The notes beneath the pieces were generated by a model, which ran no database searches, was not told the DNA's origin, and worked only from the letters and a program-made list of their open reading frames with translations. The translations under genes and the position numbers were made by a program. A stretch of DNA of 39,767 bases from a phage, in the sequence record PV935351.1. The stretch is one strand, 5' to 3'. This document shows positions 23,045 through 39,767 of the stretch, in pieces. Each line of letters starts with the position of its first letter. The first letter of the stretch is position 1.

Positions 23045-25401
23045 TGCCACTAATTACTCAATCAATCAAGAACCTTAAGGGTGGCATTAGCCAACAGCCT
23101 GACATACTGAGGTTCTCAGACCAAGGCGAGTCACAGGTTAACTGCTGGTCATCAGAGAGTGATGGCCTCCAGAAGCGTCCACCTACAGTCTTCAAGCGAC
23201 GTCTTAACATCGACGTTGGGAGCAACCCTAAGTTCCACCTGATTAACCGTGATGAGCATGAGCAGTATTACATCGTGTTCAATGGGTCCAACATTCAGGT
23301 AGTTGACTTGAGTGGTAATCAATACTCAGTGTCAGGTGCGGTAGATTACGTTAAGTCCTCCAACCCACGAGATGACATCCGTGTCGTTACCGTGGCAGAC
23401 TATACGTTCGTCGTTAACCGTAAGGTTGTCGTCAAAGGTGGAAGCGAGAAGTCACACTCTGGTTATAACCGCAAAGCACGAGCTTTAATTAACCTGCGTG
23501 GTGGACAGTATGGTCGAACCCTTAAGGTGGGAATCAACGGTGGCGTTAAGGTATCGCATAAGCTACCAGCAGGTAATGATGCCGAGAATGACCCGCCTAA
23601 GGTGGACGCTCAAGCCATTGGTGCAGCTCTGAGAGACCTTCTTGTTACTGCCTACCCTACCTTCACGTTTGGCCTTGGGTCTGGATTCCTGCTAATCACA
23701 GCTCCTTCAGGGACCGATATTAACTCAGTGGAGACGGAGGATGGCTACGCTAACCAGCTAATAAGCCCAGTCCTAGACACTGTGCAGACAATCTCTAAGC
23801 TGCCTCTTGCGGCTCCAAATGGATACATCATTAAGATTCAAGGTGAGACCAACAGTAGCGCCGATGAATACTACGTGATGTATGACTCCAACACTAAGAC
23901 GTGGAAGGAGACAGTGGAGCCGGGAGTTGTCACTGGGTTCGATAACACCACAATGCCACACGCTCTGGTACGACAAGCTGATGGCTCCTTTGAGTTCAAG
24001 ACTCTGGATTGGTCCAAGCGTGGTTCTGGTAACGATGACACAAACCCTATGCCTAGCTTCGTGGATGCTGCGATTAATGATGTGTTCTTCTACAGGAACA
24101 GACTTGGGTTCTTGTCGGGTGAGAACGTAATCATGAGCCGTTCAGCCAGCTACTTTTCGTTCTTCCCTAAGAGTGTGGCGACACTGAGTGATGATGACCC
24201 TATTGATGTAGCTGTAAGTCACCCTCGAATCTCAATCCTTAAGTATGCCGTTCCGTTTAGCGAGCAGCTGCTACTTTGGTCGGATGAGGTTCAGTTCGTG
24301 ATGACAAGCTCTGGGGTCCTTACCTCGAAGTCTATCCAGCTTGATGTAGGCTCAGAGTTTGCCTTAGGCGACAATGCCAGACCGTTCGCTGTAGGACGCT
24401 CAGTCTTCTTCTCGGCTCCTCGTGGGTCATTCACCAGCATTAAGCGATACTTCGCTGTAGCTGATGTGTCTGATGTGAAGGATGCTGATGATACAACCGG
24501 TCACGTATTGTCCTACATCCCTAACGGGGTGTTTGATATTCAAGGTACAGGGACTGAGAACTACATCTGCGTCAACTCTACAGGTGCATACAACCGTATC
24601 TACATCTACAAGTTCTTGTTTAAGGATGGCGTACAACTTCAAGCCTCTTGGTCACACTGGGAGTTCCCTAAAGATGATAAGATTCTGGCGTCTGCCTCTA
24701 TTGGCTCTACCATGTTCATCGTTCGTCAGCATCAAGGAGGGGTAGACATTGAGCACCTTAAGTTCATCAAGGAGGCAACTGACTTCCCGTCAGAGCCATA
24801 TAGACTACACATTGACTCCAAGGTGTCTATGGTAATTCCAATTGGCTCATATAATGCTGACACCTATAAGACTACGGTTGACATTGGTGCTGCTTATGGT
24901 GGCAACGCTCCGTCTCCCGGTCGGTACTATCTGATTGACAGTCAGGGTGCTTATGTGGACCTTGGGGACTTGACCAGTATCTCTACTGTGATTACCCTCA
25001 ACGGCGATTGGTCAGGACGTACAGTGTTCATCGGACGGCCCTATCTGATGTCCTACAAGTTCTCACGGTTCCTGATTAAGATTGAAGATGATAGTGGCAC
25101 TCAGTCTGAAGACACTGGTCGTCTACAGCTTCGTCGGGCCTGGGTCAACTACAAGGACACTGGCGCTCTGAGACTCATTGTCAGAAACGGTGAGCGAGAG
25201 TTCGTTAACACCTTTAATGGGTACACCCTTGGTCAGCAAACCATAGGGACTACTAACATTGGTGACGGGCAGTATCGCTTCGCTATGAATGGTAACGCAT
25301 TAACCACGAGTCTAACCTTAGAGTCGGATTATCCTACCCCAGTGTCCATCGTTGGGTGTGGCTGGGAGGCGTCATACGCTAAGAAAGCTCGTTCCGTCTA
25401 A
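23044..25401 (+). CDS. 12: tail tubular protein B
   Basis: 785 aa; QSIKNLKGGISQQPDILR, HLINRDEHEQYY, VTVADYTFVVNR, RLQLRRAWVNY, GCGWE match recalled T7 gp12. Confidence 0.97.
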   Translation: MPLITQSIKNLKGGISQQPDILRFSDQGESQVNCWSSESDGLQKRPPTVFKRRLNIDVGSNPKFHLINRDEHEQYYIVFNGSNIQVVDLSGNQYSVSGAVDYVKSSNPRDDIRVVTVADYTFVVNRKVVVKGGSEKSHSGYNRKARALINLRGGQYGRTLKVGINGGVKVSHKLPAGNDAENDPPKVDAQAIGAALRDLLVTAYPTFTFGLGSGFLLITAPSGTDINSVETEDGYANQLISPVLDTVQTISKLPLAAPNGYIIKIQGETNSSADEYYVMYDSNTKTWKETVEPGVVTGFDNTTMPHALVRQADGSFEFKTLDWSKRGSGNDDTNPMPSFVDAAINDVFFYRNRLGFLSGENVIMSRSASYFSFFPKSVATLSDDDPIDVAVSHPRISILKYAVPFSEQLLLWSDEVQFVMTSSGVLTSKSIQLDVGSEFALGDNARPFAVGRSVFFSAPRGSFTSIKRYFAVADVSDVKDADDTTGHVLSYIPNGVFDIQGTGTENYICVNSTGAYNRIYIYKFLFKDGVQLQASWSHWEFPKDDKILASASIGSTMFIVRQHQGGVDIEHLKFIKEATDFPSEPYRLHIDSKVSMVIPIGSYNADTYKTTVDIGAAYGGNAPSPGRYYLIDSQGAYVDLGDLTSISTVITLNGDWSGRTVFIGRPYLMSYKFSRFLIKIEDDSGTQSEDTGRLQLRRAWVNYKDTGALRLIVRNGEREFVNTFNGYTLGQQTIGTTNIGDGQYRFAMNGNALTTSLTLESDYPTPVSIVGCGWEASYAKKARSV

Positions 25402-25408
25402 CTTATTG

Positions 25409-25458
25409 AAGGGCCTATAGATTTACCTTAACTATCACTATAGGGACTATAGGCCCTT
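25409..25458 (+). other. 12-bp perfect inverted repeat enclosing the gene 13 promoter (candidate RNase III site)
   Basis: AAGGGCCTATAG (25409-25420) / CTATAGGCCCTT (25447-25458), 26-nt loop containing promoter positions -17 to +3. Confidence 0.6.
25426..25448 (+). promoter_or_regulatory. phage RNAP promoter
   Basis: CCTTAACTATCACTATAGGGAC, +1 G at 25443. Confidence 0.8.
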
Positions 25459-25477: not shown

Positions 25478-25954
25478 ATGTATATTCGCAAGGCTACGGA
25501 ACCAGATGTCCACTACTTTCTGCGGCATCTTTCAGCAGATGATGTTAATGAGTGCAAAGCAAACTACGGGTCAACCGTTGGTCTCTCTGAAAGACTGCTT
25601 AAGCACCTATCTCCGTCATCTGTGGTTTTAACGAACGGTGTAGGCGAAGTGTTTGCCTATGGTGGAAACCAAGGGGATAACGTATGGTTCTTGACTTCTG
25701 GTCTTGTCTATAAGCTGAGACCTAAAGAGAAGCGAGAGTTCATAAAGCGTATCTCTGAGTACAGGGACTTAATGTTAGACCAATACGGGACCATCTGGAA
25801 CTACGTGTGGTCAGGCACTAAGTCTCACATTAAATTCTTGAAGTTGCTTGGGGCTAAGTTCCATGATGATTGGACTGTAAGTCCGGTAACTGGTGAGCGT
25901 TTTCAACTATTCACTATCTCTAAGGAGGACGTATGTGCGAGCCAATTAGCATAG
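25478..25954 (+). CDS. 13: internal virion protein, gp13 position
   Basis: 158 aa; assigned by synteny between genes 12 and 14; GGAG RBS. No motif matched from memory. Confidence 0.7.
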   Translation: MYIRKATEPDVHYFLRHLSADDVNECKANYGSTVGLSERLLKHLSPSSVVLTNGVGEVFAYGGNQGDNVWFLTSGLVYKLRPKEKREFIKRISEYRDLMLDQYGTIWNYVWSGTKSHIKFLKLLGAKFHDDWTVSPVTGERFQLFTISKEDVCASQLA

Positions 25955-36658: not shown

Positions 36659-37108
36659 ATGCTCGAATTTTTAAAGAGAGCGGCTCCGTGGTTACTTGCA
36701 GCAGTGATGTTTGCTGGTGGCTACCACACCGCTAACAATAAGTGGGAGGCTAAGGTCAATGCAGAATACACCTCGAATCTTAAGGCATCGGAAGATACAA
36801 GGCTTGCTGTCCAAGCTGAAGTCAACAAAGTGTCCAAACGGTTTCAGGACGAAATGTCCTCGCTGGAAGGCAGCACTGATAGGATTATTGCTGACCTTAA
36901 GTCTGACAATAAGCGGCTGCTCATCCGAGTCAAACCTACGAGTGGAACCACGCAAAGTGACGGTCGATGCTTCATTGATGGTTACGCCGAACTTGACGAA
37001 CGAGATGCTAAACGTCTTATCACCATCGGAGTGAAAGGAGACAAGTGGATTAAGGCCCTTCAAGACACTGTGATAGCCTTACAGCAAGAGAAGGAGGTGA
37101 CGCATTGA
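36659..37108 (+). CDS. 18.5: i-spanin (Rz-like)
   Basis: 149 aa; N-terminal TM helix ([14 protein letters not shown]), coiled-coil periplasmic region. Confidence 0.9.
36759..37034 (+). CDS. 18.7: o-spanin (Rz1-like lipoprotein) embedded in the +1 frame of gene 18.5
   Basis: About 91 aa; lipobox LTISGC; PRWKAALIG...SGC..SES...VDASLMV.PNLT.EMLNV matches recalled T7 gp18.7. Confidence 0.85.
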   Translation: MQNTPRILRHRKIQGLLSKLKSTKCPNGFRTKCPRWKAALIGLLLTLSLTISGCSSESNLRVEPRKVTVDASLMVTPNLTNEMLNVLSPSE

Positions 37109-38868
37109 GTAAAGACTTAGTGGCGCGTCAGGCGCTAATGACTACCCGTATGAAGGCAGACTTCGTGTTCTTCCTGTTCGTCCTGTGGAAAGCTCTTAGC
37201 CTACCAGTACCAACCAGATGCCAGATAGATATGGCCCGCAAGCTATCGGCTGGGGACAACAGGCGTTTCATCCTACAGGCGTTCCGTGGTATCGGGAAGT
37301 CCTTCATTACGTGTGCATTCGTAGTCTGGAAACTATGGAACAACCCAGACTTGAAGTTCATGATTGTGTCGGCCTCAAAGGAACGAGCCGATGCGAACTC
37401 CATCTTCATCAAGCGAATCATCGACCTCATGCCTCAGCTTCGGGAACTCAAACCTAAGCAGGGGCAGCGAGATGCGGTTATCAGCTTCGACGTTGGACCA
37501 GCCAAGCCAGACCACTCACCTTCGGTTAAGTCCGTTGGTATCACTGGTCAGTTGACTGGTAGTCGTGCTGACCTCCTGATTGCCGATGACGTGGAGGTTC
37601 CAAACAACTCGGCGACTCAGGCTGCACGAGACCGTCTGTCAGAGCTTGTAAAAGAGTTCGACGCTATCCTGAAGCCGGGAGGTACAATCATCTATCTGGG
37701 TACTCCTCAGAACGAGATGACCTTATATCGTGAGCTGGAAGGCCGTGGATACACCACTACCATCTGGCCCGCTCGCTACCCACGCGATAAGAAGGACTGG
37801 CAGTCTTACGGCGACCGTCTGGCACCGATGCTTCAGGCAGAGCTTGAAGAGGACCCTGAGTCCTTCTACTGGCGTCCGACAGATGAAGTACGATTCGATG
37901 ATACGGACCTGAAGGAACGTGAGCTGTCCTATGGTAAAGCTGGCTTCGCTCTACAGTTCATGCTTAACCCGAACCTGAGTGATGCTGAGAAGTACCCTCT
38001 GAAGCTCCGTGACCTTATCGTAGCCGACTTGGACCCAGCGTCTAGCCCAATGGTATACCAATGGCTTCCTAACCCTCAGAACAAGCGTGAGGACGTTCCT
38101 AACGTTGGACTCATGGGTGACTCATACCACACGTATCAGACTGTAGGTTCTGCCTTCAGTTCGTACACCCAGAAGATTCTGGTCATTGACCCTAGTGGTC
38201 GTGGTAAGGATGAAACTGGCTATGCGGTACTATATCAGCTCAACGGCTACATCTTCGCTATGGAAGTTGGAGGTATGCGTGGTGGTTATGAGGACTCTAC
38301 GCTGGAAGCCTTGGCTAAGATTGGTCGTAAGTGGAAGGTCAACGAATACGTCATTGAGGGTAACTTCGGTGATGGTATGTACCTTGAGCTATTCAAGCCT
38401 GTAGCTGCCCGTATCCATCCTGCGGCTGTAACTGAAGTGAAGAGTAAGGGTCAGAAAGAACTCCGCATCTGTGACGTTCTGGAGCCTATCATGGGGTCTC
38501 ACCGACTTATCGTCAACGCTGCTGCTATCGTCCAAGACTACCAGACAGCCTCTGACAAGGATGGTGTGCGTAACCCTATCTACTCTCTCTTCTACCAGAT
38601 GACCCGTATCTCTCGTGAACGTGGAGCCTTGGCACACGATGACCGACTTGATGCGCTGGCTATCGGTGTACAGTTCTTCGTTGAGTCTATGGCTAAGGAT
38701 GCCAACAAAGGCGAACGTGAAGTCACTGAGGAGTGGCTGGAGGAACAGATGGAGAATCCACGGAAAGGCTTCGAGTCCATCCACACTGAGTTCTGGGACA
38801 ATGGGGTCCGGGTAACTCACGATACGGACGACGAGCTGGGACTAGGGTCCTACGTTACGTTCCACTAG
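37105..38868 (+). CDS. 19: terminase large subunit
   Basis: 587 aa from TTG 37105 (AAGGAGG RBS); [82 protein letters not shown] match recalled T7 gp19. Confidence 0.97.
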
Positions 38869-38877
38869 CTGAATGAA

Positions 38878-38926
38878 TAACTATAGGCGAAAGCTGCATG
38901 AATAAGCAGTTAGTAACCTATAGTTA
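38878..38926 (+). other. 10-bp perfect inverted repeat downstream of gene 19
   Basis: TAACTATAGG (38878-38887) / CCTATAGTTA (38917-38926), 29-nt spacer; the arms resemble the promoter 3' half (ACTATAGG). Confidence 0.5.
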
Positions 38927-38962
38927 CTACCAGTCTAACCTACTGTTTTATAAGGAGTTTGG

Positions 38963-38985
38963 ACTTAACTATCACTATAGGGAAG
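38963..38985 (+). promoter_or_regulatory. phage RNAP promoter near the right end (phiOR-like)
   Basis: CTTAACTATCACTATAGGGAAG, +1 G at 38980. Confidence 0.8.
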
Positions 38986-39165
38986 ACCCCCGGTTACTTA
39001 TAGTATTACTGTAGTGAATATACATATGCAGACTTTATGCAAGACCTTAGGAGGCAGACTCCGAGTTCTTACCTAAGGCTTGCACCGATGGAAGGAGGGT
39101 GATATTAATCATAATCCCTCCAATACAGATAGTCACCGACCATAGATACAGGAGGTATGTAGCAT

Positions 39166-39324
39166 ATGGCAAAGACCAAAGCTGTACTTAAAGCTCTGGC
39201 GACCAATCGAGCTACATACAGGTTTCTTGCTGCTGTTCTACTTGCTGCTGGCGTTACTGCTGGAAGTCAGTGGGTCGGGTGGGTCGAGACTCTCGTATGT
39301 TCTCTGGTGTCTCAGTGTAATTAA
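39166..39324 (+). CDS. 19.5: gp19.5-like small membrane protein
   Basis: 52 aa; TYRFLAAVLLAAG...SLVSQCN resembles recalled T7 gp19.5; AGGAGG RBS. Confidence 0.7.
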   Translation: MAKTKAVLKALATNRATYRFLAAVLLAAGVTAGSQWVGWVETLVCSLVSQCN

Positions 39325-39357
39325 CGCAATCATGGTAACGATTCATGAGCGGAAGAC

Positions 39358-39399
39358 CTAAGGTCAGTACGTGGATACAGACCCACTCTACTGACCTTA
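39358..39399 (+). other. 12-bp perfect inverted repeat near the right end
   Basis: CTAAGGTCAGTA (39358-39369) / TACTGACCTTAG (39388-39399), 18-nt spacer; about 165 bp left of the right DTR. Confidence 0.6.
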
Positions 39400-39486
39400 G
39401 CTACTGTAGTCAAGGACTTTAGGTAACACCTTAAGAGAAGCTCACTTAGGGTCATCCTACTTATTGGTCTATCCTAGTGTCGCCTG

Positions 39487-39526
39487 ACCTACGGTCCTTG
39501 ACCTACAGTGGCTGAGGCCTACAGTA
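39487..39526. repeat. short repeat array just inside right DTR
   Basis: ACCTACGGTC (39487-39496), ACCTACAGTG (39501-39510), CCTACAGTA (39518-39526); same motif and orientation as the left-end array. Confidence 0.75.
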
Positions 39527-39563
39527 GTGACGATGAGTTTTGGACCAAAAGTTTGAGACCACA

Positions 39564-39767
39564 TCTCACAGTTCAAGAACCTCAAGTCTCCCCCCCTAGG
39601 CCCTCTTTCAGTCCAGACCAAAGGCCCTACCCATTACTGCTCCTTGCAGTCACAGCCAGTCTATCATAAGGTTGGACCGATGGTCAAGACGTTAGGTCGA
39701 CGATAGGTCTAGGCTATGGCTTAGGGAAGGACGATAGGTAGAGGCTATAGGTCTTCTTTGAGTCTCT
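39564..39767. repeat. right direct terminal repeat (DTR)
   Basis: Identical to bases 1-204. Confidence 0.95.

Follow-up and report, generated by a model that had tools for sequence, protein, structure and literature searches.

The right end of phage genome PV935351.1 carries a perfect 12-bp palindrome at positions 39358-39400, between gene 19.5 and the terminal repeat (TR). The record (39,767 bp, analysed over its whole length and called the window here) is a complete K1F-like phage genome (genus Kayfunavirus, Studiervirinae, T7 group); its right-end 908 bp matched 222 phage records at 80-99% identity, nearly all of them Kayfunavirus. A right-end element between gene 19.5 and the TR is present in nearly all Studiervirinae right ends sampled. 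We propose that the palindrome, together with its flanking motif TAGTCAAG, is probably the Kayfunavirus version of the T7 M-hairpin cis-acting DNA element, and that it acts in TR duplication as folded single-stranded DNA (ssDNA) rather than as an mRNA structure or a duplex operator. In concatemers of T7-like phages one TR copy lies between neighbouring genomes, so packaging of both neighbours requires that the TR be copied first. The conversion of such one-shared-TR concatemers into two-TR genomes has been debated since the 1980s. To our knowledge, no physical intermediate other than the M-hairpin has been proposed for TR duplication, and T7 is the only phage in which it has been studied.

The arms CTAAGGTCAGTA (39358-39369) and TACTGACCTTAG (39389-39400) are complementary at 12/12 positions, as described in a first-pass annotation of this DNA. 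The spacer between them is 19 nt (39370-39388) and not 18 nt as given there, and the element ends at 39400 instead of 39399. Between the gene 19.5 stop (39324) and the right TR copy, which begins at 39564, the palindrome starts 34 nt past the former and is centred 185 nt short of the latter. The annotated setting, a non-coding right end after gene 19.5, was confirmed. The gap between right arm and TR is 163 nt; the '165 bp inside' the right TR of the annotation was about right, with 'inside' meaning internal to the repeat and not within it. The only open reading frame (ORF) overlapping the palindrome encodes 41 aa on the minus strand (39330-39455), and a coding role is not credible, as all real genes are on the plus strand.

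In dinucleotide-shuffled genomes, the mean number of perfect 12-bp inverted repeats (loops of 3-40 nt) was 0.12 per genome, and 9% of the shuffles contained at least one; the phage genome contains two. For one such repeat within the 239-nt intergenic stretch the expectation is ~0.0007. When all 19,859 50-nt windows of the genome were ranked by DNA hairpin stability, the palindrome came first (-13.2 kcal/mol; mean -3.9, standard deviation 1.8), and comparison of the hairpin with shuffles gave z ~ -5 for either strand. Besides the two arms no further arm copies were found genome-wide, and allowing up to 2 mismatches gave 6 matches against 3.6 expected. Within the loop an inner stem can form. On the plus strand GTGG (39371-39374) pairs with CCAC (39383-39386) over 4 bp, and on the minus strand the inner stem reaches 6 bp (GTGGGT/ATCCAC, one G·T pair included). 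The TC at 39387-39388 corresponds to the GA of the minus-strand internal loop. T7 primase sites (GGGTC, TGGTC, GTGTC) were also considered: GGGTC is present in the minus-strand loop of the window, yet none occurs in the K1F-type loop or the T7 hairpin, and this candidate was rejected.

Conservation was analysed in an alignment of the window with K1F, IMM-002, MopsHU1, CHRF_20120 and ST35, in which identity in the region falls to 72%. AAGACCTAAGGTCAGT and ACTCTACTGACCTTAGCTA were unchanged in 6/6 of these divergent sequences, while the loop centre and the flanks vary. Loci were also retrieved independently by using the invariant block directly before the TR, downstream of the palindrome, as an anchor; the scan of IMG/VR with this anchor yielded 13 loci. 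Both genus-invariant 11-nt arm cores (CTAAGGTCAGT in the left arm and ACTGACCTTAG in the right arm) were exact in all anchor-retrieved loci spanning the site (19/19). Among 20 unique Kayfunavirus sequences, 39355-39369 and 39385-39414 were ~100% conserved; conservation is lower in the gene 19.5 coding sequence and far lower from the palindrome to the repeats preceding the TR. The second stretch includes the invariant ACTC at the end of the loop (39385-39388) and a conserved plus-strand 3' flank, CTACTGTAGTCAAG (39401-39414), of which the TAGTCAAG part occupies 39407-39414 and reads TTGACT on the minus strand. Conservation in relatives had been proposed as a check by the first-pass annotation, and the lack of conservation named there as grounds for giving up the idea was not seen. 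The frequency of perfect inverted repeats in shuffled genomes would leave some room for a chance palindrome devoid of function. However, the arms are invariant in every examined relative while the neighbouring sequence drifts, and equivalents sharing a common flank motif exist in other genera. With the arms conserved in this way, chance can be excluded for practical purposes.

Three forms of the loop were found: the window type CGTGGATA(C/A)AGAC(C/T)CAC, the K1F type TCATAGCTGACGCTAC and a longer GTGGGATAAACCCTCCAC type. Each has an inner stem of its own (GTGG/CCAC, TAGC/GCTA and GTGG..CCAC with an insert, respectively), and depending on the genus member the invariant cores are 19, 21 or 23 nt apart. 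On B-DNA these differences would rotate the half-sites of a duplex operator, but they are harmless if the arms pair, which fits folding and not recognition of a duplex. This bears on the possibility that the palindrome is a duplex-DNA recognition site, for example for the terminase small subunit at a pac-type site or for a host protein, with the arms and the AGTCAA flank read as sequence. Such a site would agree with the invariance of arms and 3' flank as sequence, beyond pairing, and with the retention of the AGTCAA flank across genera whose stems differ. The minus strand also contains a sigma-70-like match, TTGACT-17-TAGAGT, running from 39413 to 39385; it fits at 9/12 positions, and its -35 part is the AGTCAA flank that is conserved across genera. 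Sigma-70-like matches numbered 4 against 1.1 expected, which is weak evidence, and K11 and gh-1 do not retain the -10-like hexamer. Apart from the variable core spacing, which does not conform to an operator of fixed spacing, the replaced loops each keep an inner stem and other genera compensate with quite different arms. We consider a duplex recognition site unlikely. It is quite possible that a protein recognizes the folded form together with the AGTCAA flank, and this would be compatible with the M-hairpin assignment.

In K1F the palindrome lies ~110 nt from the gene 19.5 stop, compared to 34 nt in the window, yet its distance to the TR is kept. This indicates that the element travels with the right-end module and not with the 19.5 message. 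In the K1F record (DQ111067.1, 39053-39214; positions 337-498 of locus L001) gene 19.5 is unannotated; a 53-aa ORF nearly identical to gp19.5 of the window is present, and ~75 extra nt separate it from the palindrome relative to the window.

A passage of PMC2680503 places the T7 'M-hairpin' adjacent to gene 19.5. According to the same passage, joint deletion of gene 19.5 and the hairpin led to small plaques and late lysis (Kim & Chung 1996, as cited there), and deletion of the M-hairpin region caused concatemer-processing defects in a mutant that is viable. The original work on the T7 M-hairpin region is that of Chung, Nardone & Hinkle (1990, J Mol Biol 216:939), Kim & Chung (1996) and Kim, Kim & Chung (1997, Virology 236:37). 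A section of PMC4281155 describes a TR-containing hairpin structure in T7 infection and competing models of duplication. In the T7 genome, an imperfect 19-nt inverted repeat, AGGGATTCAGCGGTATGAT / ATCACACCACTTCATCCCT, is located at 39568-39608, 30 nt after the gene 19.5 stop, and we infer that it is the mapped M-hairpin. Both this repeat and the window palindrome lie between gene 19.5 and the right TR, with centres 190 nt (T7) and 185 nt (window) before the TR. Both form a hairpin of ~40 nt consisting of an outer stem, an adjacent internal loop (TC on top, GA on the bottom strand), an inner stem and a small loop, and in both an AGTCAA(G) motif follows a few nucleotides 3' of the hairpin (TAGAGTCAAG in T7, TAGTCAAG in the window). 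In contrast, the arms of the two are unrelated in sequence. The window has a perfect outer stem of 12 bp, whereas T7 has 6 bp and interrupted inner helices, and the window loop is larger, with 19 nt between the arms. Furthermore, the two strands of the window element fold almost equally, whereas in T7 the bottom strand folds far better. The shared flank and internal loop are features beyond position that point to homology of the two elements. The suggestion of the first-pass annotation that the palindrome is a good candidate for the equivalent of the T7 concatemer-maturation hairpin is supported by the location of the T7 M-hairpin, the matching positions, the shared flank and internal loop, and the conservation. 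The comparison supports the view that the window element is an unusually perfect case of the known but poorly characterized T7 M-hairpin region.

Equivalent hairpins were sought between the gene 19.5 stop and the TR of T3, K11, Berlin, BA14, Kvp1 and gh-1, and each of these phages has one hairpin of ~40 nt shortly after gene 19.5. In addition, 80 right-end loci were retrieved via the terminase C-terminus. The TR start could be placed in 63/88 loci by means of a motif preceding the TR, which resulted in 22 non-redundant right ends, several IMG/VR lineages included. Nearly all of these contain a single hairpin whose centre is 145-245 nt before the TR. The stems fall into several families: Kayfunavirus; T7/T3/K11 (AGGGAT..ATCCCT); Berlin/BA14 (AGTGATTAT..ATAATCACT); gh-1-like (GCTCAAT..ATTGAGC); and those of loci L054, L062 and L089. 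L062, from Pectobacterium phage DU_PP_II, has Kayfunavirus-like arms (TTAAGGTC..GACCTTAA) and a bottom-strand GA/GA internal loop. The hairpins of T3, K11, Berlin/BA14/Kvp1, gh-1 and DU_PP_II resemble the window element in architecture and in position relative to gene 19.5 and the TR; they differ in that the stem sequence is genus-specific and the energies are weaker than in Kayfunavirus. We know of no published description of these equivalents.

Two further features connect the hairpins. A motif is located 2-8 nt after the hairpin in T7 (TAGAGTCAAG), T3 (TAGAGTCAAC), K11 (TACAGTCAAT), Berlin/BA14 (AAGTCAAC), L089 and the window (both TAGTCAAG). The common 3' flank, (T)A(G/A)AGTCAA, is found in five sequence families, with weaker versions in gh-1-like and Pectobacterium phages. 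Recurrence of a hexamer at one position in five unrelated stem families is unexpected by chance and marks the elements as homologous composite units, as opposed to coincidental hairpins. Secondly, the T7 and T3 hairpins differ at 10/41 positions, 8 of these positions make up four pairs in which both partners changed, and pairing was kept in 98% of cells. Pairs were counted on this equal-length T7/T3 pair, as a MAFFT alignment of the T7, T3 and K11 hairpins broke the structure. Compensatory changes were likewise found in the outer and inner stems of gh-1 compared to L048. These comparisons, like the inner stems kept in the three Kayfunavirus loop forms, show that the hairpin is under selection for pairing across the T7-group elements.

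A perfect palindrome folds alike on both strands, and it is the imperfect homologues that are informative about the folding strand. With DNA parameters the minus-strand hairpin was more stable in 13/14 sequences, as in T7 (-10.6 kcal/mol on the minus vs -6.7 on the plus strand), K11 (-10.5 vs -7.9), gh-1 (-11.4 vs -8.8) and the window (-13.5 vs -12.6). When both strands were scanned, the best hairpin in the zone was on the minus strand in 20 of the 22 non-redundant right ends. The genome background is opposite, as strong hairpin windows favour the plus strand in ~70% and the minus strand in ~28%. The predicted structures contain 11 G·T pairs on the minus strand and 0 on the plus strand; the minus strand is more stable because C·A / A·C mismatches of the plus strand become G·T pairs on the minus strand. 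RNA parameters gave -14.7 kcal/mol for the plus and -24.6 for the minus strand of T7. In every family the unpaired minus-strand bases beside the outer stem are GA-type purines: GA/GA in T7, T3 and DU_PP_II, GGA/GGA in K11, GA/GAA in gh-1-like phages, and GA/G or AGA/GA in Kayfunavirus. Tandem G·A mismatches stack stably in DNA, and the true strand asymmetry is therefore probably larger than computed. The better-folding minus strand is untranscribed in these phages, so that, most simply, the conserved folded species would be bottom-strand ssDNA and not mRNA.

Transcription of the region does take place on the other strand. The phage promoter TAACTATCACTATAGGGA has 10 matches in the genome, all on the plus strand, as are all large ORFs without a bigger shadowing ORF. 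The last match (38966-38983, plus strand) is the counterpart of T7 phiOR, and rightward transcription from it crosses the palindrome, on the plus strand only. The palindrome could accordingly be imagined as an RNA stem-loop on late transcripts that run from this phiOR-like promoter through gene 19.5, either as a 3' stabilizer or as an RNase III site ending the 19.5 message. Its place 34 nt past the stop codon and a plus-strand RNA fold of -24.8 kcal/mol (z = -4.6) would suit such a role. In gh-1 (NC_004665, 37000-37069; L025, 701-770) a putative RNase III stem-loop, R13, is annotated between the 19.5-like gene and the TR, though it is a different hairpin: R13 is more TR-proximal than, and distinct from, the M-hairpin-like hairpin 2 nt after the stop codon. 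The window element resembles T7 RNase III sites and the class I terminator Tphi in being a stem-loop in transcribed intergenic DNA. It differs from them in lacking a U-run and an Rfam match and in having a shorter helix, and its homologues fold better on the untranscribed strand. A scan of 38800-39767 found no terminator-like sites, the stem being followed by CTACTGTAGTCAAGG; lacking a U-run, it qualifies neither as an intrinsic terminator nor as one of T7 class I. An Rfam scan of the same segment (E<=10) returned only a meaningless miRNA match. The plus-strand RNA helix of ~16 bp is short for RNase III, which requires about two helical turns. In the other genera the transcribed strand is the weaker folder, contrary to the genome-wide plus-strand bias, and both arms are fully invariant, unlike RNA stems, which usually covary. 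The K1F palindrome, as mentioned, keeps its distance to the TR and not to the stop codon. Dunn and Studier reportedly mapped ten T7 RNase III sites in 1983, with 0/10 after gene 19.5. An RNA element appears improbable on these grounds.

The strand asymmetry is also relevant to cruciform extrusion. A cruciform formed in supercoiled or branched replicating DNA might be cut by a junction-resolving endonuclease of the T7 gene 3 type, giving hairpin-capped ends with the same function as proposed here for the M-hairpin. T7-group phages encode a Holliday-junction resolvase, and cutting of a cruciform yields hairpin ends. The perfect arms, which form the most stable hairpin of the genome, and the good folding of both window strands would be in line with this route. 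On the other hand, extrusion with a 19-nt spacer is kinetically unfavourable, and if both strands were cut 185 bp left of the TR, the upstream genome would end up lacking a TR. The plus-strand hairpin is poor elsewhere (three internal mismatches in T7), so a symmetrical cruciform is not what is conserved, and the strand asymmetry would be unexpected. We give this route very little weight.

Folding of the bottom strand suggests how an M-hairpin could serve TR duplication, with both the folding strand and the snap-back geometry inferred. A nick in the bottom strand, at or near the right TR boundary, would give a 3' end that is extended leftward. The polymerase would copy the TR, displacing the old bottom strand, and reach the palindrome ~185 bp past the TR. 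There the strand of bottom polarity, nascent or displaced, would snap back. Synthesis would then turn rightward on the nascent strand, giving a hairpin-capped duplex with a new TR copy attached to the downstream genome, while the old duplex TR would stay with the upstream genome. Cutting by terminase at the two TR boundaries would yield two complete genomes. Such a geometry would explain the hairpin end left of the junction, the bottom-strand folding bias, and a maturation that is slowed and not abolished when the element is lost, because the classical staggered-nick route remains.

Extended to the subfamily, we tentatively put forward that a Studiervirinae-wide composite element ~150-250 bp left of the right TR may have evolved for bottom-strand folding and may be the snap-back point at which the TR is duplicated. 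Read along the bottom strand it would comprise, in this order, a TTGACT-like motif, the outer stem, a GA-type purine internal loop, the inner stem with G·T pairs and a small loop. As a mechanistic analogy only, the rolling-hairpin telomeres of parvoviruses are similar in that fold-back of a palindrome turns the polymerase to copy terminal sequence; small purine mismatch bubbles are a feature of parvoviral hairpins as well. They differ in that parvoviral hairpins are the genome ends and have a dedicated nickase, whereas the palindrome described here is internal (~185 bp from the repeat) in a double-stranded DNA (dsDNA) genome with direct repeats. We know of no dedicated nickase for the window palindrome.

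Several observations weigh against the assignment as an M-hairpin acting in folded ssDNA form. Within Kayfunavirus the strand bias is small (0.1-1.1 kcal/mol) and mixed under RNA parameters, so that the strand argument rests on the family as a whole. The Kayfunavirus arms never vary, and hence the main stem offers no covariation in this genus. The distance from palindrome to TR is not constant, with ~155-192 nt within the genus and the wider range given above across genera. In the right-end scan a few environmental lineages (L042, L051, L080) had no clear equivalent. The T7-type hairpins (-6 to -11 kcal/mol) are not extreme, as coding-region controls reached -7 to -10 kcal/mol per kb; with energies that are not outliers outside Kayfunavirus, the cross-genus case rests on position, flank motif and covariation. 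The link between T7 39568-39608 and the mapped M-hairpin depends on the description 'adjacent to gene 19.5' and on the location ~190 bp left of the TR that the abstract of Chung et al. 1990 reportedly gave for the T7 hairpin. The deletion phenotypes are those of T7, the one phage in which function was studied. Finally, in a transposon-style essentiality map most loci at the T7 genome ends were non-essential, with insertions apparently tolerated. Together with the viable T7 deletion mutant this implies that the element helps and is not indispensable.

We have not seen the cross-genus hairpin, its AGTCAA flank or the bottom-strand bias with the GA-type loop described, although the primary T7 papers were outside this comparison. 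Cross-genus presence, flank motif and bottom-strand bias allow the element to be defined by comparison and suggest specific mutations for testing it. If the Studiervirinae-wide proposal is true, regeneration of the second repeat in T7-type phages becomes directly testable and would involve a rolling-hairpin-like step inside a dsDNA phage. Phages of this kind are widely used in therapy and re-engineered by genome assembly, and synthetic versions should retain the palindrome unaltered. A further possible effect of the palindrome is breakage of assemblies. Two circularly permuted Kayfunavirus assemblies, independent of each other and seen among 60 sampled entries, were opened inside the palindrome: the last base of the ST21 record (OQ860979.1; L027, L028) is the first of the right arm, and the CHRF_10022 record (PQ336901.1; L006, L029) stops 7 nt short of this arm. 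These breaks may stem from fold-back molecules or from chimeric reads at the hairpin, or be coincidental, and are a weak hint of a covalently closed hairpin DNA end.

The remaining right end is organized as follows. Gene 19, encoding the terminase large subunit (37105-38868, plus strand), precedes the phiOR-like promoter, and gene 19.5 (39166-39324, plus strand) encodes a small hydrophobic protein of 52 aa. Downstream of the palindrome, short direct repeats (GACCTACGGTC, GACCTACAGTG, GGCCTACAGTAG; 39486-39528, plus strand), the first unit of which is genus-invariant, resemble the short repeat arrays flanking the terminal repeat of T7. They are followed by the invariant block GACGATGAGTTTTGGACCAAAAGTTTGAGACCACA (39529-39563, plus strand), presumably the sequence context for the cut creating the left genome end. 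The right TR copy (39564-39767) is identical to 1-204, an exact direct repeat of 204 bp. The invariant block carries a cross-genus motif, AAA(A/G)T(T)(C)TGA(G/A)...TCTCA. In the window (39529-39571) and also in L007, L021, L022, L024 and L025, this motif has the form AAA(A/G)T(T)(C)TGA(G/A), 3-11 nt, and TCTCA(C/T)AG at the first base of the repeat. A small palindrome, TTTTGGACCAAAA, lies ahead of this motif in Kayfunavirus. The cross-genus motif probably represents the context of the left-end cut.

Motifs similar to GACCTANNGTC (<=1 mismatch) occur 68 times genome-wide against 9.7 expected. They form dense clusters at 112-448 and 39355-39753, in and around both TRs, and several lie downstream of phage promoters. 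The left arm of the palindrome overlaps an exact unit of this short-repeat family clustered at the genome ends, GACCTAAGGTC, at 39355-39365. Directly after the left TR, ATCTGTA is found at 205-211; it resembles ATCTGTT, the class II pause/termination signal of T7 RNA polymerase at the T7 concatemer junction.

Another strong hairpin (GCAAGACCTTAGG...CCTAAGGCTTGC; -11.1 kcal/mol with DNA parameters) is located at 39037-39086, between the phiOR-like promoter and gene 19.5. It is kept in several Kayfunavirus loci at ~+170 nt from the gene 19 stop, and its arm AAGACCTTAGG resembles AAGACCTAAGG of the right-end palindrome. This hairpin may be an RNA processing or stability element. The other perfect 12-bp inverted repeat of the genome (25409-25458; AAGGGCCTATAG / CTATAGGCCCTT) sits between a 785-aa ORF ending at 25401 and an ORF starting at 25478. 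Its 26-nt loop encloses a perfect TAACTATCACTATAGGGA promoter (25429-25446), and a promoter within a hairpin loop is unusual.

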